DNA of 63,967 nucleotides, filler included, from Reclinomonas americana ATCC 50394 (lineage: Eukaryota): assembly GCA_048213135.1 (NCBI GenBank). It is 7 parts of 4 records of this genome, joined end to end, with 100 filler letters (N's around TTAATTAATTAA, not from the genome) between each part and the next. Parts side by side here need not be neighbours in the genome. Positions count along the whole stretch, not along the records: positions 1 to 15,594 come from PS015522.1; 6 more parts are not named here. One strand, written 5' to 3'. Every line of letters starts with the position of its first letter. Position 1 is the stretch's first letter. The translations under genes were made by a program, and so were the position numbers. The notes beneath the pieces are model-generated. The model was not told where the DNA came from. It ran no database searches and saw nothing but the letters and a program-made list of their open reading frames with translations. This document shows, piece after piece, positions 1,610-55,300 of the stretch.

Positions 1610-4008
<2,399 letters not shown>

Positions 4009-4643: not shown

Positions 4644-7547
4644 ATGAGCGCACCTCCCATCACCTTTGTGAGCAGCGCCGACCGCACTCACACCTCCACA
4701 TGCTTTGACGCGATTCTCGAAGGCGTGCCCAGTGATGGCGGTCTGTGGATGCCCTCACACATTCCGCGTCTGTTTGGCGCCGACGAAGGCTGCATTGCGC
4801 TCTCTGAGCTCCCGCGCTTGAGCATGGGAGACATTGGAGCGCACATTCTGCGGCCGTTCTTGGCCGAGGAGTTGCCGCGCAAGGAGCAAGTGGAGCAGTT
4901 GGCGCGCGATGCACTCAATTTCGATGCACCGCTCGTGTCGGTGATGGGAGACTACGCGCGAGTGTTGGAGCTGTTCCGCGGGCCTACGGAGGCGTTTAAG
5001 GATTTTGGCGCGCGTACCATGTCGCGGGTGTTTGCTGCGCTGTTGGAGAAGCGCGGGGAGCTGGGCAGGCGGCGAGTTGAGTGTGCGAGGAGAGATGGGA
5101 GGGAGAGGGAGGGAGAGAGAGAGAGAGAGCGAGAGAGAGAGAGAGAGAGAGACGGAGACACAGAGCAAGAGAAGGGACAAGAGACATGCCACGACAGGGA
5201 TCCATGCAGGGAGGAACGTGAGCATCAGAGAGCATTAGAGAGAAACAACATGTCGTGTCGTTTGTTGGAGAAGTACGTAGCGTCTTTAGTGTGAGGACTG
5301 AGTGTGCAGGCGGCGAGAGAACAAAGACAACTCGACAGGGATTGAGTCAGGGAGGTAGGTGAGCGTGAACAATACCTTTGACGAAGGAACCATGTCGTTT
5401 GTGTTTGCCGCCTTAGAGACGTGTGAGGATTGAGTGTACAGGAGGCGAGAGAACAAGAGAGACATGTTGCGACAGGGATCGAGTCAGTGAAGGAACGTGA
5501 GCATAGGAGAGTATAAGAGAGAAACAACATGGCCCTCGTTCATGTTTGCCTGTTGGAGAAGCACGAGGCGTCTTTCGTGTGAGGATTGAGTGTGCTGCCA
5601 GCGAGGGAGAGACACGCAATGACAGGGATCGAGACAGTGAAGAAACGTGATGATGATGAAGCATGAGGCATGTCATTTGTGTTTGCCCCCTTCTTGGAGA
5701 AGCGTCGTATGAGGATTGAGTGTGCGGCCAGCGAGGGAGAGACACGCAATGGTCAGAATGAGAAAGAGAGCCAGATTTGATTCCATGGCTTCCTCGCCTC
5801 TCCTCACGCTTTGCCTCTCCTCACCCTTTGCCTTTCATGCAGGTGGTGGTGGCCACCTCTGGCGACACTGGCGGTGCCGTGGCGGCGGCGTTTGCTGGCA
5901 CTGGCGTGCCTGTGACTGTGCTGTATCCACGCAACCGCGTGTCACCCTACCAGGAGGCGCAGATTGCCGCACACGGTGGCTGCGTCACGGCCTTGGAGGT
6001 GGATGGGTCCTTTGACGACTGCCAGACACTGGCCAAGCAGGTGTGTGTGTATGTATGTGTGCACAATGCACGGGGAAGAGTTGCTGACGGCCAGCGATCA
6101 GGCGCTGTCGGATCCAGAACTGCGCGGCACGGTGTGCTCGGCCAACTCGATCAACATTGCGCGTCTGCTCCCGCAGACCGTGTACTATGTGTGGGCGTAC
6201 GCGCGTCTGCTGGAGAGTGGCGCCGTGGTGCCGGGCGATGGCAAGAAAGTTGTCTTTTGCGTGCCGTCAGGTGCGCGTTCTCAACATCAACACCAACAAC
6301 TTGCATATCTCCCCTGCTCCTTCTCACCCTTTCCCCATATCCCGCTCAGGCAACCTCGGCAACGCCACCGCCGGCCTGCTGGCCATCTTTATGGGCCTTC
6401 CCATCGACCGCCTGGTGATTGCCACCAACGAGAACGACACGTTCCCCAAGTTTATGGAGACGGGCGAGTACAAGGCGGTGCCGTCGACGCCGACAGCGTC
6501 GTCGGCCATGGATGTGGGCGATCCGAGCAACTTCCGCCGCGTGTGGGCGCTCTTCGACCGCGATATGCAGGCGCTGCGTGAGCGTGTGCAGTCGATTGCG
6601 ATTCCCGAGGATGAGGTGCGGAGTATTCTTTTCACGCCTCCTGCCATCCTGCACGCAGCTCATTGTCCGTGCAGGCTGCCGACAGTATGCGCCGCGTGTA
6701 CGCCGAGGGAGACTATTTGATGGATCCGCACACGGCTGTGGGGTACCGAGCGTTGGAGCGTCTGTACCCGGCGTCGGCCGACGATGCGCACAACATTGTG
6801 CGCGTCACGTTGTCCACGGCCAGCCCTCTCAAATTCTCCGAGGTCATCAAGCGCGTGATTCCCGAGTATGAGCCACCAGCATACTCGCCACCGCTGTTGT
6901 ACAAGGCCCGCATTCCCTACAGTCCCTCGGTGTGGAGGTGCGTGTGTGCTTGTGCTTGATGCGCTTCCGTGGTGTTTGCTCACCGGCCTCTCCGCAGCCG
7001 CGTGTTGCGTCCGCATCGTTTTGTGTTGATTGGCATGCCTGGGTCTGGCAAGTCGACGCTGTCGGAGCTGCTGGAGCAACGCGGCTGGAACCCAGTGGAC
7101 ACGGACAAGTTGTTGCCGGCGGGCTACGAGGGCGCCGGTGCCGATTTCCTCGAAATGGAGGGACGCGTGCTGCTTGAGTGGGCGCAAAATGGTGTGTGTC
7201 TCTCGATCACAGTGAGTTGTGTTCATGAACCTCCGTACTCACCCCTCGGAGCAGACGGCGCATCGCTGCCGCAAAAGTCCGTCATCGCCACCGGCGGCTC
7301 GGTGGTCTACAACGAACCGCTGATGGCTGCGCTGCGCGAGCTCGGTGTGCTGGTGTACACGTGGGTCCCCTTCATTCGGCTCACCATGGAGCAGGCGATT
7401 GCACGGCGCGTCGCTTTCAACGCCAAGGGCGGTTTTGAGGCGCTGTACGAGGAGCGTGCGCCGCTGTACGAGAAGTGGGCGGAGGTGACGGTCGACTGCT
7501 TCAACGCGTCGCCGGAGCAGTGCGCCGAGGTGCTCGCCAACTTGTGA
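4644..7547 (+). CDS. thrC: Threonine synthase with C-terminal shikimate-kinase-family kinase domain (single spliced ORF)
   Basis: Motifs PSDGGLWMP, ELFRGPTEAFKDFG (PLP lysine), ATSGDTGGAV, SANSINIARLLPQ, VPSGNLGN, ATNEND, SAMDVGDPSNF, DPHTAV. Intron 6938-6998 (gtgcgt...ccgcag) joins in frame to LIGMPGSGKST, DTD, VIATGGSVVY, LYEERAPLYEKWA; stop 7545-7547. Confidence 0.92.
5075..5760. repeat. Degenerate tandem repeats filling threonine synthase intron 1
   Basis: Units such as ttggagaag....gaggattgagtgtgc...gcgag.gaga...gacagggatcgag...gaa.cgtga recur near 5265, 5425, 5553 and 5694. Confidence 0.75.
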
Positions 7548-20726: not shown

Positions 20727-21599
20727 NNNNNNNNNNNNNNNNNNNNNNNNNNNNNNNNNNNNNNNNNNNNNNNNNNNNNNNNNNNNNNNNNNNNNNNNNN
20801 NNNNNNNNNNNNNNNNNNNNNNNNNNNNNNNNNNNNNNNNNNNNNNNNNNNNNNNNNNNNNNNNNNNNNNNNNNNNNNNNNNNNNNNNNNNNNNNNNNNN
20901 NNNNNNNNNNNNNNNNNNNNNNNNNNNNNNNNNNNNNNNNNNNNNNNNNNNNNNNNNNNNNNNNNNNNNNNNNNNNNNNNNNNNNNNNNNNNNNNNNNNN
21001 NNNNNNNNNNNNNNNNNNNNNNNNNNNNNNNNNNNNNNNNNNNNNNNNNNNNNNNNNNNNNNNNNNNNNNNNNNNNNNNNNNNNNNNNNNNNNNNNNNNN
21101 NNNNNNNNNNNNNNNNNNNNNNNNNNNNNNNNNNNNNNNNNNNNNNNNNNNNNNNNNNNNNNNNNNNNNNNNNNNNNNNNNNNNNNNNNNNNNNNNNNNN
21201 NNNNNNNNNNNNNNNNNNNNNNNNNNNNNNNNNNNNNNNNNNNNNNNNNNNNNNNNNNNNNNNNNNNNNNNNNNNNNNNNNNNNNNNNNNNNNNNNNNNN
21301 NNNNNNNNNNNNNNNNNNNNNNNNNNNNNNNNNNNNNNNNNNNNNNNNNNNNNNNNNNNNNNNNNNNNNNNNNNNNNNNNNNNNNNNNNNNNNNNNNNNN
21401 NNNNNNNNNNNNNNNNNNNNNNNNNNNNNNNNNNNNNNNNNNNNNNNNNNNNNNNNNNNNNNNNNNNNCTACAAGCTGATGAGGAAAACGTCGACGTCGA
21501 AGTTATCAATATTAATAATCCATTCTTGCATGGAAAGCCTTGATCGCAGTCGAGAGAGGACCAGTTTAACCGCGAACCAGTTGCTTCAATCATCTTTCA

Positions 21600-25905: not shown

Positions 25906-28900
25906 TCACAAGGCAGCCGGCAGAAATGCCCTGGCCGGCTCTGGGAACATCGACCGCGAGTCCTGCACAATCGTCGTGTGCAGCGCCTTGGCATTATCCA
26001 GTCCCAAGCGCGCCAGCACCTTCTCCAGTGTCGATACTCGGGAGAGGGCATCCAACGTCCGCCGGTGTGCGTCGGCGGGCACCATGGGCAGCAAGCGCGA
26101 GATGACACCCGTTCCTTTCCCGTGTACCGCTGCTCCCGCTCGTTCGCGCTCTACGCTCGCCAAGTTGTCCGTGCCGAGCTGTCGACACGTATCCACCAGC
26201 AGCGCATCGTCTGCCATCAAGGCATCTTCGTAGTGGGCACCGAGGTGTTCGCGCAGCAGGCGCATTCGTGTGTCGCGTGCGAGAGCCGCGTGGTTAATGG
26301 TCGCCAGCAGCTCGGTGGAGCGGTACGAACTCATGTTGTCCATGTTGGCTGAGCCCGTGAGCATGACGCGATCGTCGACGATGCACAACTTGGAGTGCAC
26401 ATAGATGGAGGTCACTGCGGCGCGAAAGTCAACAATAAAGGAGACGAGTGTCTCCGAAAAGGAGTCGGAGCAACCCGCAACAATGAGACTGTTGCGATGC
26501 TTGTTGGGCCAGACAGCAGACAACGACACGACTCGGAGCCACATCGTGCAGTGACCACAGATGCGCGTTGACTGTGTGCATGCGGACGGTGGTGTGCGGT
26601 CAACACATCAACGAGTGCCAACCACCTGATACGACATGCAACACGCAACTATGATCCTGATTCATGTCGAGCAGTGTACCCAGCACGCCGCTTGGAAGAT
26701 CGGTGGCAACATTGGTGATGACGAGCAGGCGCAACTCGGGCACTCGCTGCAGCGCCTCTCGCATACAGTGCGTCATGGCTGCGTTGTGAAACTGCGCCAA
26801 AGTCAGATACACACAAGGCGACAAATATACATCGGCCGCGCAGCAACGCACAGGATACTGATGCTCGATGTACACCAACCGCTCAGCCGCCGACAGCACA
26901 CGACAAAACTCGCTCACCAGCACATCACTGTGCGAGACCAGTGAGTGAGGCAGCGGAGCAACGGCTTCGTGCCCGACAACAGCGCCACCTGTTGAATACT
27001 CGCTGCCACGATCGACGCACTTGAATTCGACACTGCTCGGCAACCACACCAACCGAGTCGAACCAGCCGGCAGTGGGCTCCGGTGGTGTTTGAGGTGCGC
27101 ATGCAACATCAGCGATAGGCGGCAGGGTAATTCTTCGCGAGTGCACAGCATTGCATGTGAACGCGTGTGACCACCGCTGCGCAAAGTGCAACCACAGGTG
27201 ACGGACAATGTCGCCCGTGAAACACAGCTGCGCACGCACAGCCGCCATGAGTGGCCGACGGAAAAAACAGGACTGCGAGCAAAGGAGCATGCCTGCAAGT
27301 CGTGCCACAGGAACCGCGAAGGAGGCAGGCTAGCTCGCCCCGCCGCGTGACGTGCTCTGTCGTGCCCCGTGTCGTTGCTGCTGCCACTTGAACTTCCTTT
27401 CAAGACGTCCAACAGTTCCGCCTGCAATCCCCACGGTGGCTGATGCAGCGGCAAGTCGAAACGTGCACGGGCCATGTCAAATCCCTGCCCCGTACCACGT
27501 CAGTGTCTTTCCGCAACGCAGGCACGCACTCCAGCCACATCATCATGACACAACTCCCATGAATGCCACACTCGCCGTGGCGTCGTCGGCATCCACCAAC
27601 ACCAGCTTTTCGTGATGACAACTCACCAAGCCTGCCGAAAGTGCAGTCAGCGGCTCGCAACACCGAGAGAGAAGAGGGAGGTACAAACCCCCCGGATTGC
27701 TGGCCATCACAATGACAATGTGCGCACCATCCGCCCAGTCCGTTGCGAACGGATCGGCGTGGGCACTACTGGCGTCTGGCTGTGAGAGAATGAGAGAGTG
27801 AGCACAAGAACTCGGAAAATCGGTCGAGCCAGCGAAGACGCACAAGGTTGGATTGTGCGTGGTAAACTCGAACAATGATGCCTCGCGCGGAAGCACGCCG
27901 TCGCAAACTCTGCAGACTCCAAGATGAGCATCCTCACTCTCTTTCTGCTGGCTTCGTATTCCTTGCTCACCTCCACCTCCGCCTCCAGCGACACAGCTCC
28001 TAAATGCGTAAAGCGCTGCGTGAAAGAAAACCACTCGTGCCTCCACACCACCACTCGTATCCTGACTCCACGACTCGCACACTCCAGCAATACGTCCTGT
28101 CGCCGACGCTCAGCTAGAGCACACAAAGCGTGCTCCAGACAAAGATTCTCACCTCAAGGGTAATCCACAGCCAATCACCACGTTCACCAACAAAGGCCGA
28201 AAACTGCGCTGTAGTCAACATGGTCGTCGCCGTGCTCGACTCTGTCTCCCCTCGTTCCCTTTGTGGTTGTGGCTGGTAATGATGGTGGTGCGGCTGACGC
28301 AGGTGAGGTCGGTGGTGTGGAAGGGGCGCGTACACGAGGCCAAACTTGAACGACAGTTCCCAGCCCAGAATGGACACACTGCGTTTGGCACGAGACAGCG
28401 CCTGCACACCGAATCAGGTCATACCACTGACACGAATCCCAACAACAACACCCCGACTTGCAACGCACCTCATAGTATGTGCCAAACACCTGGTGCCCAT
28501 CGATCAGCACCCGACAGTTGTTGTTCGTCGTCTCGGCGCCCCACTCCTTACCGCCAGTACTCGCCGCCTCCTCGGCCGTCGGCAACGCTGTGCATCCCAG
28601 AGAGTACGCCACAATGTACTGCGATCCGCCACCTGCGCTAATGCGCAGTGTCTCGCTGGCCACCTCCAAGTGCCTGTCTGGCGATCCGAGTCGCACAAAT
28701 GTCCACGGGTGATCATCGGGCACGTGGTCGCCGGCTGCATTGCGCTGGTACACACCCACTTGCAGGGGGGCAAGAATAACGTGTGGGTGGCGGGAGACCA
28801 ATTCCAACAGATGCACGTAAACACACACACACCATTCCCGTGCTCATCGCGATCGCGTGGCACAAACTCAAACGTGCGCAGGCACTTGCGAATGCCAAAG

Positions 28901-43423: not shown

Positions 43424-46400
43424 TCACTGGCGGCCTCCAATGTGGCGGACCTTGGACGGGGGTGCCAGCGTCGCATCGACGGTCAGTGGGAACGCAGCGG
43501 AGAAGAGACGAACGGGCGGGGGTCCGGTGCTGCTGTGTGGCGTTGCGTTCAGATGCGGACTGAGAAGGCGGTACAGGGAGTGGGCGGCAAACCGTTCGGG
43601 ATCGGAGGCTGTAAACTGAGTGGTTCCGGCGGTGGTGACAGTGTGCTGGTCGACGAGGGGAATGCTGGTGGGAATGCGCTGCAGCATCTCCGACAGGTTG
43701 TTGCGCAGGAGTGGCTGCATGTGGTGTGGTGGTGGTGGTGGTGATAAGCGGACCTTGCCAGACGAAGCAGCAGCGAAAGGGGCGTGAGAGTACGCAACAC
43801 GACGCGGCTGCATGGTCACTCGTTCACGGTCAGCAGCAGGAGGTGCATGTGCGACAGGAGTGGTCGTTGTCGTTGTGGTGCTTGCCGAGGATCTCTGGCG
43901 ACTGGGAGTGGCAGCGACGGGCATCCTGCGAGTACTGGAGAGCAGGATCGAGTCAGTGCCTTGGGTATTGCTTGTTGACTCAGTCGCCACTGCCCGCACG
44001 CAACGGCAGCGGAACACTGGCCAGCAGCGCGTCCATACTGTCGTCGAAATCGTCGTGGTATCCGACGGAAGACGGCGGCGGCGGTGGCCGGGGTGGCGGC
44101 AGAGGAGGAGCCGGTGCACGTTGTGTGCGAGGTACTCTGTTCGCCACATGCACTCGTGAGTGTGTGAGACTGTGGACTGACTCGCAAAAGAAAAGTGCGA
44201 CGCAACGGCATTGGGAGAGTCGCCAGCTCCTGGTCGAACGAGTCGTCAATGTCGAACTCGTTGTCTGACTTGCGCAGTGGCAACGTAGCAGTCGACGCGT
44301 ACGCACCCCAAGCATGCACAGGCAATGCCGGCGGTGGTGGTGGAGGGGGCGGAGGAATCGGGAAACTGGAGAGGAACGAGTCCAAGTCGCTGTCCAGTTC
44401 ACTGCTCCCACAAGAGTCAACTCAGTGAGGTATAGCGTGCCGCAGAAAATGTAAGAAGGCCACGCAACAGCTCAGTGGCAAGCGGTGCAACAGTCCTCTC
44501 GCGGAGCATCTGCAGCATGTCACGCTCCTGGCGAGCAGGAATGAGCACAGAATATGCCAAAAGGGAAGGCAGAGACGGAGCACCTTCTTGCTGCTGGAGG
44601 AAGCTGCGGAAGACGATGGTGTCGCCGGCGATGCGGCCTTGGACAGATCCGTTGCACTGCTTGCCGCAGCAGCTGTTGCTGCCTTTTTGCCTGCTCGCGT
44701 CACATGGATTGTGAGATACAATCCTGCTTCGCTTCCCGCCGTTGTCGCTCACAAACCCTTCTTGGCAGCAGCACCCTTGCCCTTGCTCGGCTTTCCCTGC
44801 TCGTCAGTGGAACGCTCCGACAGAGGCAGCGGAACGCGCGGCAGACCCTTGTACACCGAGTCGGCGTCCATACCGACTGCGCAGCAAGCAAGCAAGATTT
44901 TTGTCAACTGACACACCACAGCAGTCTTCACAGTGAGGAGTCACCGACCGTAATCCTCGCTGAGCAGATACGCCGTCACATCTCCGTGCATGCCAAGTGG
45001 AATGTCAATGTTGATGGACACTGGTGAGCTCGACAACGTGCACCTGCAGTCAAAGAATGAGACCACTATTACATCGTCAACAGGGTTGTGAGAGATCACC
45101 GCACCGAAATCGTTCCTCATAAAACAGCTCGCCCAGCTCATCACCAATCAGCAGCACCAGGTTGTGCGTCTGTGCCGGGCCGCTGCTACTGCCACCGCCT
45201 TCACCAGCACCAGCACCGCCAAAGGCACGTGGTGTGAGGCGGGCCACAAACGACAGTTTCTTGGTCGCCGTTGTCGACACGCCGGCACGGTGAAACTGTG
45301 AGCTCGAGCAGCGTGAGTGGGAATGGAGGAGCACTGACATTCATGAATCGACGCAACATCAAGATCGTACACTGGAATGGACGCCACCGTGGCTCGCAGT
45401 TGCGCACCGAACGGCGGGTGGCGATTGCAGACCTGCACGCGCATCAATGAAAACTATACTGCCTCTCTTGATGGAAGCACCTCCACTCACCAATTCAATC
45501 TTGCCAGCCTCCATGTCCAGCAGCTTGTGGAAGGAGGTGACACCGGCGGTCACCAAATTGTTGCCGAGGACGGGACCGATCTTGTCGAGCTGGCGCATGA
45601 CATGCGGACTGTTCTCCCACATACGGGCGGCGACTGCTTTGGATCTGCAACACCCACCAACGCGACACATGAGCCACGGTCGTGCGGCGAAGGATCAACG
45701 GGGGTAATCCACGCAACAGCAGCACGGCGTTGCGAATGTCGAGAAAGCGGCGCTTCGACGACATTACCGCCGCCAGCAGTCGGCAAATGCGAGGAGCTGA
45801 CGCAAAGAACAATGAGAAACAAGACGTGAGCACATGGACACGCGCACGCATAGATGACAACGCACCCCCGGTGAAAATGTACGTCACATCCTGCCGCAGA
45901 GACCAGTCGTCGACCGCCAAGCCTGCCAGCGTGGCCTTGTGGACGTAGATGATAAGGCTTTTCTTCACCGAGGAAGACAAGCACTGACACATAACAAACC
46001 TGCACGAGCACGCTGACCTTGTCCTCGGTGGTCTTGATGCGACCATCGACAGGGAAGCGCAGCTTGTGCTCCTTGGAGGAGTTCAGCGCATTCAGGTGCT
46101 TCTTGTCACCAGTGCGGATCTTGCACGTCTCGCTAAACTCCTCTGCGCGGGCGAGAACCGAGAGAAGGGCATCCAACTGGCCGCCGGGATCGCTTTCTAC
46201 CATGTGCTTGACGGTGCCGAAGCGCACATAGTAGCGCGCCATGGCTCGCCCAATGTCTGCGATCGCGAGTGAGGACTCCGAGACATGCACAACATCACGC
46301 AGCGACATACCAAGTGCCGACACAGTACCCGTATCGGGGTCGATGCGAATGAGGGAATGCGAGGCCAGGTCGTCGAGCACGGTGGTGCACAAGCCTGCAT

Positions 46401-48846
46401 CGGGGGAGAATGAGCTTCGCATGCGCCAGCGACAGAAAAAATTCACCACGAAAACGCACCGCGCAGATACTCGTCCAGCTCTTCGGCGGTGATGGTGGCC
46501 TTCAGCCCGTAATGTACTGGATTGCGACGCATGCGCACGTACAGAAAGGTGGACTTGAGCCAGTCGACGGCCACCCGCGTGGAGGTGATGGTGCCCAGCA
46601 CGATTTCCGAGTTGAGGTGCTCCGGAATCGAGGTGGCCAAGCTGTATAGGCCAGTGAGCAGCGGTGTGGAATGAGCACTGCAACTCCAAGTGCGACGCAA
46701 CTGACTCTCCACTGGATCGGAGCCATGCAGTGCCATTTCCCAGCGCGACTGCTGCGACGATTTGGTCATGATGACTGCCACTCCACGGTCGTCAAACTGC
46801 GGTCGTCCAGCTCTTCCAATCATCTGCAACACCGACATGGGCGACGCCTCCTCGTAGTGGTTGTCCTTGCTGCATGCCGATTCAGGTGACGTCGCAGAAA
46901 TGGAGGAGGAGACGGGGAGCAACTCAACTACACCAGCGTGCCGCGCACAACCACGAGACGGGCTGGCAGATTGACACCCTGGGCACTGCAACGGTGTGAG
47001 GCATTTGAGAGGTTGACAATTCACAAGGAGGGAGGTAGAACGCAACAGTGTGGACGTGGTGCACACAACGCGCACGTCACCACTCATAAAGAGCTCCTCG
47101 ACCAGTCGGCGATCCGGTGGTTCCAATCCGGCGTGATGAAAGGCCACAGCATTCGGCACCGTGTCTGTCGACACTCGCGCTGTCAGCAACAGAAGTGAAG
47201 GAGGATAGTGACATCTCCAACCTTTCAGGACCTTGTCGGAGAGCCGACGACTGGCGGCCATTAGCCTGTCGCACATGCGTGTGAGAAGAAAGTGAACCAC
47301 AGAGATAATACAGGCCGCCACACATACCGCTGCGCTTGCGCCGAGTCGCTGATGAATGGCGACACACGTGAGCGCTCAGCCGCCTGTGCCACGATGCGCT
47401 TCGCGGCATCGCTGGTGCCTCGGCGAGTGCTACAAAACTGCACGCTGTCTTCCTTCAGAGACTGTGACCAGGGACGAGTTCGCGACTACCCAGCAACACG
47501 CAACGACCAGAGTCGGCTTGCCGTCCGAGTACCGCAGAATGCTGTCAAGCAGCTTGTAGTTGAGGTTGCTTTCGAACAAGAAGTCAGTGCGACCCTTCTG
47601 CTCGGCGTAGCCGACAACGTGTGTCTCCAGCTTGCAAGGACGGTAGTCATCACCGAATCTGCGATGCTGGCGAGTGAGTGCACCTGGTCGTCACGAGCCA
47701 GTGCCTTGCACAACACGTACATTTTCACGCCGAGTTGACCAACGCCAAGCCACACGGCCAGATCCTCAATGTTGGGAATGGTGGCAGACACGCTGACAAA
47801 GCGGACACGACAGTCGGCCTCCAGTCGCTGCATCGTTTTCAGTCGGCTAACCACGGCCTCCAGCGTTGCTCCACGATCCTCGTTCAGCAAGTGCACCTTG
47901 CAGCACGACGGTGAGATGCGCACAATGGAAACCCCCACCCAGCGATCCTGCAGACCTCGTCGATCATCACGAGTGCCACACGCTGCAGCAGGCCACGGTT
48001 GTCACGCCAGCGGCGAGTAACGCTATCCCACTTTTCCGGGGTCGTCACAATAATGTCAGCCTCGCGGATCACCGAAAAGTCGCCCTCGGTCGAGTCGCCA
48101 GTCAGCTCACGGCCTGCTCATATCCCCGCCGAGTGAGATACACTTCCTCTCTCTCATGCACACAGAGGCGCAAACCAACGACGCAACAGCACACATCCAG
48201 CGGGGCAAACTTCTCGGTCCAGTCGCGGGCCTTCTCCTGGCACAGCGCCTTGAGCGGCGAAATGTACACCATCTTGCGCTGCGAGTGGGCGCCGCCGCCG
48301 CCGCCGCCACTGCCGCCACCGCAGCCGTTGCCGTGGGCCGCCGCGGCCACCTTTTCCACCTCGCGGACCATGGCCAGCTCAAAGAGCACGGTTTTGCCGC
48401 TGCCTGTTGGTGCACTGATGACCATGTTCTCGTCGCTGTTGTAGACGGTCTGGAAGCACGCGGTCTGCACTCGATTGAAGGTACCGTACGGAAACAGTCG
48501 ACGATAGGGCGCCGTGACGGCCGACGTGGACAGGCAGCCGTGGGTCGGCGGAGCTGCTGCCGCAGGAGGAGGAGGAGGAGGAGCTGGAGGAAGTGCTGGT
48601 GGAGGTGGAGGCGGAAGAACAGCTCGCGGTACCATCGGTCGCTCTGCAGTCCTGGACACGTGCACGGCTGCCTTATCGGCCGCTCCGATGCCATCGGAAA
48701 CTGCGAAAAACAATCATATCACCACCACCCATACAGAGTGTGAGTGCAAGCAAGCAAACAGCTCAGCGCAACTGGCATGCGAGGGCGGTGTTGCCCGAGC
48801 CGGACTCTCGAAACGGGACGACACTGTACATCGCGACATGTTCATG
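43424..48846 (-). CDS. MER3: Meiotic Ski2-like helicase MER3/HFM1, multi-exon; start uncertain
   Basis: FNRVQTACF, VISAPTGSGKTVLFELAM, YISPLKALCQEK, VTTPEKWDSVTRRW, IDEVHLLNEDRGATLEAVVSRLK, VSATIPN, AFHHAGL, QMIGRAGRPQFDDRG, EHLNSEI, Sec63-like region with WENSPHVMRQLDKIG. Single helicase cassette. Confidence 0.85.
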
Positions 48847-50033
48847 TTCGAATTGAAGCACAACACGGTTTCACGCAACCAATGGATCTCTACTGACCAC
48901 TCCAGTCATCCGCGCTGGTCAATGTCGGCCTTTTCACACACACAATGTGAGCAGCGGAGTGCAGACACGCAGTGGAGAGAACGCACTTGACAGGAGGGAC
49001 AACTCGTGATCTGTTTTTTTCACATATGCAGTCAGACAAGCAGACAAGCACATGANNNNNNNNNNNNNNNNNNNNNNNNNNNNNNNNNNNNNNNNNNNNN
49101 NNNNNNNNNNNNNNNNNNNNNNNNNNNNNNNNNNNNNNNNNNNNNNNNNNNNNNNNNNNNNNNNNNNNNNNNNNNNNNNNNNNNNNNNNNNNNNNNNNNN
49201 NNNNNNNNNNNNNNNNNNNNNNNNNNNNNNNNNNNNNNNNNNNNNNNNNNNNNNNNNNNNNNNNNNNNNNNNNNNNNNNNNNNNNNNNNNNNNNNNNNNN
49301 NNNNNNNNNNNNNNNNNNNNNNNNNNNNNNNNNNNNNNNNNNNNNNNNNNNNNNNNNNNNNNNNNNNNNNNNNNNNNNNNNNNNNNNNNNNNNNNNNNNN
49401 NNNNNNNNNNNNNNNNNNNNNNNNNNNNNNNNNNNNNNNNNNNNNNNNNNNNNNNNNNNNNNNNNNNNNNNNNNNNNNNNNNNNNNNNNNNNNNNNNNNN
49501 NNNNNNNNNNNNNNNNNNNNNNNNNNNNNNNNNNNNNNNNNNNNNNNNNNNNNNNNNNNNNNNNNNNNNNNNNNNNNNNNNNNNNNNNNNNNNNNNNNNN
49601 NNNNNNNNNNNNNNNNNNNNNNNNNNNNNNNNNNNNNNNNNNNNNNNNNNNNNNNNNNNNNNNNNNNNNNNNNNNNNNNNNNNNNNNNNNNNNNNNNNNN
49701 NNNNNNNNNNNNNNNNNNNNNNNNNNNNNNNNNNNNNNNNNNNNNNNNNNNNNNNNNNNNNNNNNNNNNNNNNNNNNNNNNNNNNNNNNNNNNNNNNNNN
49801 NNNNNNNNNNNNNNNNNNNNNNNNNGAGAGAGTGAGATAGACACACTCACGGGTTGCTTCCAGTCACCGACCGGCCTTGCAGCATATCCCGAAACGACTT
49901 CATCGACTCCCCTTCTCTCACTCCCACGTTCAAACAATGTAAATCAAGCTACCGTACACCCACGAAACGAGTCTACATAATAACTTGCTTGGTGGCGTTT
50001 TTTACCGCTTAACGAGAGACACAGCAGGGGTGC

Positions 50034-52323: not shown

Positions 52324-55300
52324 ATGGACGAGTCGAGTGCCGGCGGTAGTGCGATGTTTGTACGCGCACAGACACTGCCGGCGTTGATGAGCAACGCAGG
52401 GAGTGCTGGTGCACACAAGCACGTGACAGCACGTGCACCGCAGCGAGCGATGGTGTCGGTGAGAGCGTTCGCGTCGCAGCTCTTCACGCATGACATGGTT
52501 CGGCGGACAAGTGCACGCAGACCCGTGGCGACTGTGAGTGCGGGTGGGTCGCCGACCAGAGCGCGTGGGCTGCCGCAACCATCGGGGCACTATCGCAGCG
52601 GCAGCGGTGGTGCAGTGGTCGAGTTGAGCCGGGGTGATGGGCGATCGTTGCTGCGAACGGTCGTCCCACCGATGGCGGTGGTCGCATCGACTGGTGCAGC
52701 ACCGACCGAGTTGTTGCAGTCGGCACTCACGGTGTCGCCCATGTACACGGCGACGGTGGATGTGGACGCGGTGTCGAAGAAAATGACGCCGTCGTCTCGA
52801 CCGCCGACAGTGGGAACGATGGAGGTGAGTGCGTGATCGATCGTGAGTGAATGCGAGAGACAGAGAACAACTGATGAGCGACACGTACAACAACAACAGG
52901 GATCACTGAACGCCGCCATCAGCGGTCACACCGAGCCGCCGACATCCGACGAGTGGCGCCAGTGGGCCGACGATCTGATCGGACCACCACTCGTGTTCAG
53001 TCGCGTGCTCCCCGTCGAATCAGACGCCGCCGCAGCGACTCACGCAGTGCGTCGGTCGTCCACGTGCTTGCGTTCGTACGCTTGTCGTTCTTACTCGCTC
53101 TCTCTCGATTGCAGGACGAGGAGGCCGACACGCCGTCGTCGGCAGCGTGCACTCCAATGTCGAGCAGTGCGCCACCAGTCAGCGACACTGCTGATGCTGC
53201 TGCTGCTTCTGATGCTGCTGGTGCTGCTTCCGATACCACCGCCGAGCCGACGCCACGGAGGCAAGCAGCGGCCGCGGTACCGTCGCCTGGCTATGTCACC
53301 AGTCGTCAGCGTTTCCTCATCACAAGGCATCGGCTGGCGTTCAAGTTTGTGCGCTCCGATTGCAGGCTGGTGCGCTCCACACTGGAGGAGCACGGCTTCC
53401 GGGAGACCGACACGGAAAACTGGAACGTGCTGTGGACCACCTCACCCGTGACACCACACATGCTGCTGGGTCTCAACAAGCACCAGCGTGTGAACCACTT
53501 TCCGCGCTCGCAAGAGATCACGCGCAAGGACAAGCTCGTGGAGAACATTCGTCGCATGCAGGAGATTCACGGCAGCCGAGTTGCGTGGCACACCAGCATC
53601 ATCACCGACGCCGACCCGCCACTCACCGTTTGCACGCGTTACAGCACTTTAGCTTCCTGCCCGAGACGTATGTGCTGCCGACCGAGTTCGCCACGTTCAC
53701 TGCCGCCTGCCGAGCACACGGCCGTGGCTTGTGGATCGTCAAGCCGGCTGCGCTGTCACGAGGACGTGGCATTTCACTCATCACAGCCGCGTCGCAAGCA
53801 CCACACGATGAGCCGCATGTCGTGTCGCGCTACATTCACAACCCGCTGCTGATCGATGGCTACAAGTTGCGTGATCAGGAGTCACCCCATTGGAGACCGG
53901 CGCAGCTCACCGTGTGGCACACCAGATTCGATATTCGGATTTATGTGTGTGTCACCTCGTTTCATCCGCTGCGCGTGTACATGTATAGCGACGGCCTGGC
54001 GCGACTAGCCACGGAAAAGTACTCACCCGAAGCCACCACCTCGCACCGCCTGCTGATGCACCTGACCAACTACAGGTTCCTTGACAACTGCAGTCTTTGT
54101 TTGCACTTGTATGCAGCTCACTTCGCAAGCATCTCCCGCACGCGTGCAGTGTGAACAAGAACAGCGTGCACTACCAGCACAACATGGACGGCAGCATCGA
54201 CGACGAAGGCCACAAATGGAGTCTGTCGGCTCTGCGTCGGCATCTGCGACGAGCCTCAATCGACGACGAGAAGCTGATGAGCGGCATCAAGGACATTGTG
54301 CTGAAGACGCTCATCTCGATCGAGTCGTCGGTGTCGGTGGCGCAGGAGATGGGCCAGAGCAAGTCGTCGAGGGACGCGAACAACTGTTTCGAGTTGTTCG
54401 GCTTTGATATTCTGGTCGACGAAACACTGCAGCCGTGGCTCATCGAGGTCAACCTCAGTCCCAGCCTGTCGTGCGACACTCCGCTCGACCAGAAGATCAA
54501 GTCGGCGCTGGTGGCCGGTGAGTCGTGACAGCTGGCAGAAGGAGAAGACAACTGCACTTACACTCAATCTCTCTCTCTCTCTTTGCGCATGCAGACACGC
54601 TGTCGCTCGCCGGCATCAGACCGTTCGACTGGAGGCGAATGAAAGAGGGCACGCTGCACAGTGGGGCCGGCAATCGTGCAGTACCCGTGTCGTCGTACAT
54701 GGCCCGCAAGATGGCGGAAATCAATCGCCTGCTGCAGGCGAGAGGTGTGGACTTAATGCAGCTGGCCGCCGAGGAGCGTGCCGTGCTGCGCGACACCATT
54801 CTGGAGAGCTGGAGGCGCGGAGGCTACGAACGCTTGTACCCGGCAGCCAATGGCCGCTCCTACGACATGTACTTTGAGGCCATTCGCCCGTTGCGTTCAT
54901 TATTCCCGCAAGAGTGTGAGTGTTGATGTGGTCGCTCACTCACTCTTGGAGATGCAGGCTGAATGTGTTGTGCCACACGGTGTTGTTCGAGGCGCGCGAG
55001 ATTCCTGTGCGTCGGCGGTTGCCTAGCGCCGATGGTGGTGCGCCGCGGTTGCGACCATTGTCGTTGTCGGCGCAAGTCAGATCGCTCTCGAGCACGCGAT
55101 CGCTCCAGCAGCACCAGCAGCAACAGCACCAGCACCAACACCAGCAGTATTCACACCTCGAAGGCGACGACGAGGGGGAGGATCGCGAACTGCAGGACGA
55201 TGACATGAGGGACAGCCAGCAGGAGGCCACCGACGACTACTGCGTCGATGTGTCGCGGCAAGCCGTCCTGCACCTGCGACCGCACACGTGCCACGAGGGT

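Follow-up and report, generated by a model that had tools for sequence, protein, structure and literature searches.

A gene of the eukaryote Reclinomonas americana ATCC 50394 joins, in one modelled reading frame, a threonine synthase (ThrC) to a kinase of the shikimate-kinase fold, and probably encodes a bifunctional homoserine kinase/threonine synthase. It lies on the plus strand at positions 4644-7547 of a 63,967-nt stretch of DNA from assembly GCA_048213135.1, hereafter the window, along which all positions are counted unless another locus is named. The assignment is based mainly on the fusion, on the clade in which the kinase domain probably falls and on one bacterial operon with a matching pair of genes. 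It is the most economical functional reading, and homology alone does not establish the substrate.

As proposed, six introns would be removed from the transcript of one nuclear eukaryotic gene to give a 604-aa enzyme of two domains. The C-terminal kinase domain would use ATP to convert L-homoserine to O-phosphohomoserine, the N-terminal ThrC would turn the resulting O-phosphohomoserine into threonine, and one polypeptide would carry the final two reactions of threonine synthesis. From sequence comparison we infer homoserine as the substrate of the kinase.

Gene structure

Splice-site modelling gives a gene of seven exons and six introns with a 604-aa product, from an ATG at 4644-4646 to a TGA stop at 7545-7547; the gene stretch is free of N runs. 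The introns are, in order, 767, 61, 79, 59, 60 and 63 nt long, five of the six falling within 59-79 nt. All six are of the form GT..CAG, four with donors of the GTGCG/GTGTG type, and in every one a CTSAY motif precedes the 3' splice site by 13-24 nt. Residues 1-442 form an E. coli-type threonine synthase and residues 443-604 a complete P-loop kinase of the shikimate-kinase fold. An earlier sequence-only reading of this DNA had ThrC running directly into a P-loop domain, and the gene model bears out the in-frame joining in the spliced product, which contains all of the strings then cited (W-S-R-V, LIGMPGSGKST, DTD, VIATGGSVVY and LYEERAPLY). The parts of the gene are as follows.

4644..5075, plus strand: exon 1; start codon, ThrC N-terminal domain and the motif AFKDFG with the pyridoxal phosphate (PLP) lysine; Thr_synth_N 9.7e-9, TIGR00260 26.6 bits; collinear with 9 bacterial ThrCs
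5076..5842, plus strand: intron 1; 767 nt, GTTGAG..CAG; degenerate tandem copies of the end of exon 1 and the donor region (repeat families D2-D8)
5843..6040, plus strand: exon 2; ThrC PALP core (VVATSGDTG); PALP 4.8e-9, TIGR00260 59.3 bits; best PDB match 1vb3
6102..6270, plus strand: exon 3; ThrC (SANSINIARLLPQ); TIGR00260 18.6 bits; aligns with bacterial ThrCs
6350..6615, plus strand: exon 4; ThrC (GNLGN, SSAMDVGDPSNF); TIGR00260 51.2 bits; 1vb3 at 3.6e-16
6675..6937, plus strand: exon 5; ThrC C-terminal domain, ending ..SPSVW; Pfam THR4_C 2.9e-8, TIGR00260 26.4 bits
6938..6997, plus strand: intron 5; 60 nt, exactly at the domain boundary; GTGCGT..CAG, CTCAC 16 nt before the acceptor
6998..7191, plus strand: exon 6; N-terminal half of the kinase (Walker A GMPGSGKST, DTD); best family NF040667, 35.0 bits; generic P-loop kinase Pfam matches
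7192..7254, plus strand: intron 6; 63 nt, open in frame; GTGTGT..CAG, CTCAC 14 nt before the acceptor
7255..7547, plus strand: exon 7; C-terminal half of the kinase (VIATGGSVVY, LYEERAPLY), stop at 7545-7547; Pfam SKI 4.6e-8, NF040667 70.3 bits

The four exon junctions internal to ThrC, that of exons 1 and 2 included, are collinear and without gaps against 9 bacterial ThrCs. The junction internal to the kinase is backed by alignment to the kinase family, in which removal of intron 6 brings the loop before VIATGGS close to family length.

Intron 1 consists of about four to five degenerate tandem units of 130-156 nt, each repeating the last ~36 nt of exon 1 together with the donor-site region. 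The families D4 and D8, along with D2, D3 and D5-D7, make up these repeats, which span 5006-5098 and 5076-5842, and a (GA)n tract occupies 5087-5158. The extra donor-like copies could serve as decoy or alternative splice sites.

The threonine synthase half

By predicted activity the N-terminal half is a PLP-dependent threonine synthase of the E. coli type. Its Pfam domains are PF14821 (Thr_synth_N) in exon 1, PF00291 (PALP) in exons 2 and 4 and PF24857 (THR4_C) in exon 5. The thrC equivalog TIGR00260 matches all five exons for a total of 182.1 bits (26.6+59.3+18.6+51.2+26.4) against a curated cut-off of 167.1; this total, like that for NF040667 below, is a sum of single-exon scores and not a whole-protein score. 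The half is collinear over its full length with the 9 bacterial ThrCs at 39-45% identity, and the FKD (with the PLP lysine, in AFKDFG), SGDTG, GNLGN and DPSNF motifs are conserved.

The best solved match for all three exons tested is E. coli ThrC (1vb3), ahead of the yeast enzyme (1kl7). Exon 4 has 2021 homologues, of which the best 120 are all ThrC and every named one is bacterial (Gammaproteobacteria, Vicinamibacteria and Steroidobacteraceae). Thus, the description of this half as bacterial-looking in the sequence-only reading agrees with both the structural and the sequence matches. With class II ThrC (1vb3) the half shares the set of Thr_synth_N, PALP and THR4_C domains as well as the motifs; it differs from E. 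coli-type ThrC in that the gene is split by four introns and the last ~12 residues are replaced by the kinase domain.

The kinase half

The signatures of the kinase half set it apart from canonical shikimate kinases and are those of a distinct clade of paralogues. Pfam SKI (PF01202) matches exon 7 (4.6e-8, 33.8 bits, cut-off 22.1). Among NCBIfam models NF040667 is the best family for both exons, with 35.0 bits for exon 6 and 70.3 bits for exon 7; the scores of the shikimate kinase models do not exceed 18.6 and 29.9 bits, respectively, and stay below their cut-offs of 142-204. Against profiles built without it, the window's domain scores 120.4 bits with the clade and 49.9 bits with 11 canonical shikimate kinases. 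Nine alignment columns separate the two groups, and the domain is clade-type at six of them and canonical at none. It has GGS and a Leu where all eight canonical kinases compared have the shikimate-binding GGG loop and an Arg; this Arg, following a conserved Phe, is R58 in M. tuberculosis numbering. The same Leu occurs in both proteins that score over the NF040667 cut-off. The window's kinase also has M-P in the P-loop and Tyr at two clade-specific positions, and its Walker A, DTD, GGS and the arginine of ER..PLY are all intact.

Phylogenetic trees place the domain inside the clade. The split between canonical and clade kinases has a Shimodaira-Hasegawa-like approximate likelihood ratio test (SH-aLRT) support of 99 in an 83-row tree and 100/100 in a more careful tree of 56 rows, in which the domain pairs with P0042 (90/72) within an 11-row group that includes L081 and L082, the two over-cut-off members (94/88).

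When 1.84 billion representatives were scanned with exon 7 in HMMER, 649 relatives came up; among the best 150, almost every one is a stand-alone protein 90-240 aa long. Of 36 scanned among these best 150, 35 match NF040667 and 34 have it as top family, none reaching the cut-off (maximum 188 bits); therefore the window's kinase would belong to a large and mostly unnamed paralogue group. The two remaining cases are P0075, a chimeric tRNA-ligase open reading frame (ORF) in which NF040667 ranks below the tRNA-ligase models and above the shikimate kinase models, and P0145, which matched nothing. The ESM Atlas returns only generic SKI clusters for the kinase.

NF040667 (hom_kin_desulfo) is based on DvMF_0971, which according to PMC5764234 rescues an E. 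coli thrB- mutant. Homoserine kinases of the shikimate-kinase family, mentioned in the sequence-only reading as a proposal for some bacteria, are thus documented. With this Desulfovibrio-type enzyme the window's domain shares the shikimate-kinase fold, the GGS and Leu signatures and probably the paralogue clade. It differs in being eukaryotic, intron-containing, fused to ThrC and on a long branch, whereas the Desulfovibrio genes are free-standing and not beside thrC. The known Desulfovibrio-type activity, by analogy, would feed ThrC.

Evidence bearing on the substrate

Several observations on the domain itself and on its bacterial relatives weigh against homoserine as the substrate. The summed NF040667 score of 105.3 bits is far under the curated cut-off of 197. 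The sub-domain for substrate binding has diverged: it lacks about 9 residues ahead of FLEME and has about 5 extra ahead of VIATGGS. In pairwise phmmer comparisons the domain is no nearer to the over-cut-off proteins L081 and L082, which rank 146th and 302nd of 383 with 71 and 58 bits, than to Clostridial members, which score up to 99. Separate phylogenies of the two domains had been suggested with the sequence-only reading; that of the kinase puts it in the NF040667-like clade (the 94/88 group above), but the branch is long (1.6) and an approximately unbiased (AU) test leaves a grouping with canonical kinases unrejected (p 0.318, log-likelihood difference 7.9).

Gene content points the same way. 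A tally was made for 15 genomes, bacterial or archaeal, in which a clade member is present; ThrB exceeds its cut-off in one of them and HomK (TIGR02535) in 10. Since 11 of the 15 have ThrB or HomK, the clade is not generally the sole homoserine kinase. Both are under cut-off in the other four, which include both genomes with over-cut-off NF040667 matches. Neighbouring genes were surveyed at 160 loci, 80 from genomes and 80 from metagenomes. Flanks of at least 1.4 kb were present upstream in 75 and downstream in 70 of the 80 genome loci, and in 57 and 58 of the 80 metagenome loci; the metagenome scan covered 65 of 85 candidate neighbour ORFs, leaving out the 18 shortest and two of locus L110. 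Only at L110 does thrC adjoin the kinase (1/160), and it is beside the kinase in none of the five Desulfobacterota genomes checked. The shikimate pathway gene aroA immediately follows the kinase in 10 of the 80 genome loci (L018, L029, L031, L034, L047, L056, L062, L067, L071 and L077) and in 9 of the 80 metagenome loci (L145, L160, L161, L162, L167, L169, L175, L180 and L184). Because these aroA-adjacent loci come from one Lachnospiraceae-type lineage, they represent few independent events.

The aroA loci share a layout of flavin reductase-like gene, NF040667-type kinase and EPSP synthase (aroA). All five genomes examined for paralogues hold two, one scoring 166-192 bits with NF040667 and the other 35-104 bits, and in the three genomes inspected the low-scoring paralogue lies within aro operons, beside aroD/aroE or between aroA and aroC. 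Genome G002, with an aroA-adjacent clade kinase, also has a canonical shikimate kinase beside aroD/aroE, plus HomK. In genome G028 HomK (TIGR02535, 536 bits) is directly beside thrC (contig C67, 6439-8638), and an NF040667-like kinase is found elsewhere in the genome. A phmmer search with five seed ORFs, of which L189 and L190 may be from the wrong strand, found no class I ThrC near clade kinases in L001-L185. A PLP enzyme of Cys/Met metabolism adjoins a clade kinase once (L141), and an EamA transporter does so in 8 loci.

In the metagenomic locus L110 a clade kinase gene comes 45 nt after thrC; the two genes and their order match those in the window, with the difference that they are separate genes. 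The pair lies between genes for an AmmeMemoRadiSam radical SAM enzyme and AmmeMemoRadiSam protein A (L110 2155-7046). L110 is not especially close to the window's gene, its kinase scoring 56 bits at rank 314 of 383 and its ThrC ranking 90 of 134.

Taken with the divergence of the domain, these data leave room, as a rather unlikely alternative, for a real fusion in which the kinase phosphorylates another small hydroxy compound or serves as a nucleotide-sensing regulatory module on ThrC. The presence of ThrB or HomK in 11 of the 15 genomes means that most clade members are redundant or have another function, and both the insertions and deletions peculiar to the window's substrate-binding region and the unreached NF040667 cut-off would fit. 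However, the link is most simply explained by the fact that the fusion partner consumes O-phosphohomoserine, L110 has the same pair as an operon, and Walker A, DTD, GGS and the ER..PLY arginine are all intact. The candidate bifunctional enzyme of the sequence-only reading thus keeps its in-frame domains, and its homoserine substrate is made less secure by the 105 versus 197 bits, by a clade that is not uniform and by aroA being a more frequent neighbour than thrC.

Intron 5 and support for the fusion

Intron 5 is typical of the gene's introns in donor type, branch motif, acceptor and length, and we infer from these features that it is spliced out. It had been placed at 6938-6998 (61 nt) in the sequence-only reading; it is 6938-6997 (60 nt), and only the 60-nt version gives the junction tgg ag/c cgc gtg. 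When the acceptor is at 6997, any of the donors 6932, 6938 and 6944 would yield an in-frame fusion (6/12 GT/AG pairs tried). Because alternative donors also give an in-frame fusion, the fusion is robust and its exact junction uncertain by about 2 residues.

Exons 5 and 6 share one genomic frame, parted by a single in-frame TGA at 6957-6959 inside intron 5. That the kinase has no ATG of its own, as remarked earlier, is upheld: the only in-frame ATG between this TGA and the P-loop is that of the Met within GMPGSGKS (7035). TGATG at 6957-6961 might have been a stop/start overlap of the bacterial kind, but this reading was rejected because the ATG (6959) and the kinase are in different frames. The kinase domain begins at most 10 residues before the P-loop, like its free-standing bacterial members.

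Exon 7 has an 82% identical and 94% similar counterpart without gaps and with the same C-terminus in P0001, from another source. The codon bias is common to both halves, the G+C content of third codon positions (GC3) being 0.77 for ThrC and 0.82 for the kinase. By this conservation and GC3, the kinase exon is native and under selection.

If intron 5 were kept, the TGA at 6957-6959 would end a ThrC-only protein of natural length without the kinase. The main product could then be ThrC alone, the kinase being an untranslated remnant or made only by read-through or alternative splicing where the intron is only sometimes removed. Consistent with this, the 60 nt of the intron are a multiple of three with one in-frame stop, and the retained-intron ThrC would end about 10 residues past the aligned SP, bacterial ThrCs ending about 12 past it. 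Such an outcome is nevertheless improbable. In its splice features intron 5 is like the other introns throughout, the kinase exon is conserved without gaps in a second source and has a coding-type GC3 of 0.82, and a relic would not keep every catalytic motif.

Fused relatives and animal THNSL1

A search for ThrC followed by SKI, put forward with the sequence-only reading as a way of checking the fusion, turned up no fused form among the listed relatives of either half. On the kinase side none of the best 150 of the 649 relatives exceeds 431 aa, and all 11 longer matches to exon 7 are only 170-186 aa. Five relatives of 319-431 aa among these best 150 have unrelated extra domains or none (sce7726, GNAT and 2-thiouracil desulfurase). 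The metagenomic proteins P0048, P0054 and P0062 are clade kinases fused to a GNAT acetyltransferase, a 2-thiouracil desulfurase domain and a sce7726-family domain, respectively; some could be chimeras produced by gene calling or assembly. On the ThrC side PF01202 occurs in none of the best 120 of the 2021 relatives of exon 4, and exon 1 has only 2 longer matches. Literature searches found no description of a ThrC-then-kinase architecture.

In animals THNSL1 likewise has a shikimate-kinase-like and a ThrC-family domain on one polypeptide. The order is reversed, with the kinase domain N-terminal to the ThrC-like domain in THNSL1 and ThrC N-terminal to the kinase here. The related THNSL2 has phospho-lyase activity, and animals do not make threonine. 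To our knowledge no function has been assigned to animal THNSL1; literature searches gave nothing that pairs THNSL1 with shikimate kinase and, among 12 of 83 papers naming THNSL1, nothing on its function by title or opening of the abstract. Given its sequence and the architectures seen among the listed relatives and in the literature searches, the window's protein is best described as a THNSL1-like pair of folds in the opposite order whose ThrC is bona fide, an architecture found in neither of those sources.

A catabolic pair like animal THNSL, in which the kinase and a ThrC-like phospho-lyase would degrade homoserine or a related hydroxy-amino acid, is less probable again than a retained intron. 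THNSL1 joins the same two folds in animals that do not synthesize threonine, and THNS1_HUMAN is listed with one split microbial homologue in PMC12547972. However, the thrC equivalog matches all five ThrC exons with a sum over its cut-off, and the half is closest to bacterial biosynthetic ThrCs with 1vb3 as best PDB match. Least probable of all is a genuine shikimate kinase that became joined to ThrC by chance. The Pfam SKI matches and the aroA immediately downstream in 19 of the 160 prokaryotic loci would speak for it, but against it stand GGS for GGG, Leu at the Arg of all eight canonical kinases, the 49.9 versus 120.4 bits, a canonical kinase in the aro operons of the genomes with aroA-adjacent clade members (3/3 examined) and the lack of a metabolic logic for joining such an enzyme to ThrC.

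Genomic context

Elsewhere in the window, Pfam identifies helicase pieces with Sec63 Brl and SNRNP200 winged-helix domains, a gene of the tubulin-tyrosine-ligase family and a PLD-like domain. The eukaryotic coding pieces are at 45553-47375 (minus strand), 53213-54151 (plus strand) and 25909-26607 (minus strand), and most other long ORFs have no Pfam match. Since the fused gene is found among eukaryotic genes (helicase, tubulin-tyrosine-ligase family and PLD-like), it is not bacterial contamination. The window holds 5214 N in 24 gaps (e.g. 3161-3625, 20727-21468 and 49056-49825). Several of the gaps are paired blocks of 44 N 12 nt apart, and the gap at 3161-3625 is bordered by long (GA)n/(CT)n tracts.

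Possible origin of the fusion

A bacterial thrC-kinase operon may, speculatively, have been taken up by a eukaryote, with the ThrC stop codon and the spacer of ~40 nt becoming intron 5; we regard this as a doubtful scenario. It would fit the position of intron 5 exactly at the domain border and the in-frame TGA that gives a natural ThrC length. The TGA at 6957-6959 is 38 nt upstream of exon 6 (6998), a distance that resembles the 45-nt spacer of L110, and both halves have only bacterial-looking relatives among the matches listed.

Significance

When pathways are reconstructed from genomes, homoserine kinase is one of the steps that most frequently come up as "missing". In PMC7311316 it is a low-confidence step in 29 of 148 prototrophs, and in a 2026 GapMind preprint it is still missing in 16 genomes. 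Most clade members surveyed occur in genomes that have ThrB or HomK, and a "homoserine kinase" label should not be extended to the whole clade by homology alone.

If the bifunctional reading is true, the covalent fusion to ThrC would be independent evidence, from a eukaryote, that the Desulfovibrio-type fold supplies O-phosphohomoserine, and it would give a lead on the function of animal THNSL1. Should the uptake of a bacterial operon also be true, the gene would encode a homoserine kinase of the shikimate-kinase fold, the first from a eukaryote, and would serve as a "Rosetta stone" pointing to homoserine-type substrates for a clade labelled "shikimate kinase" and, by extension, for the kinase half of THNSL1.

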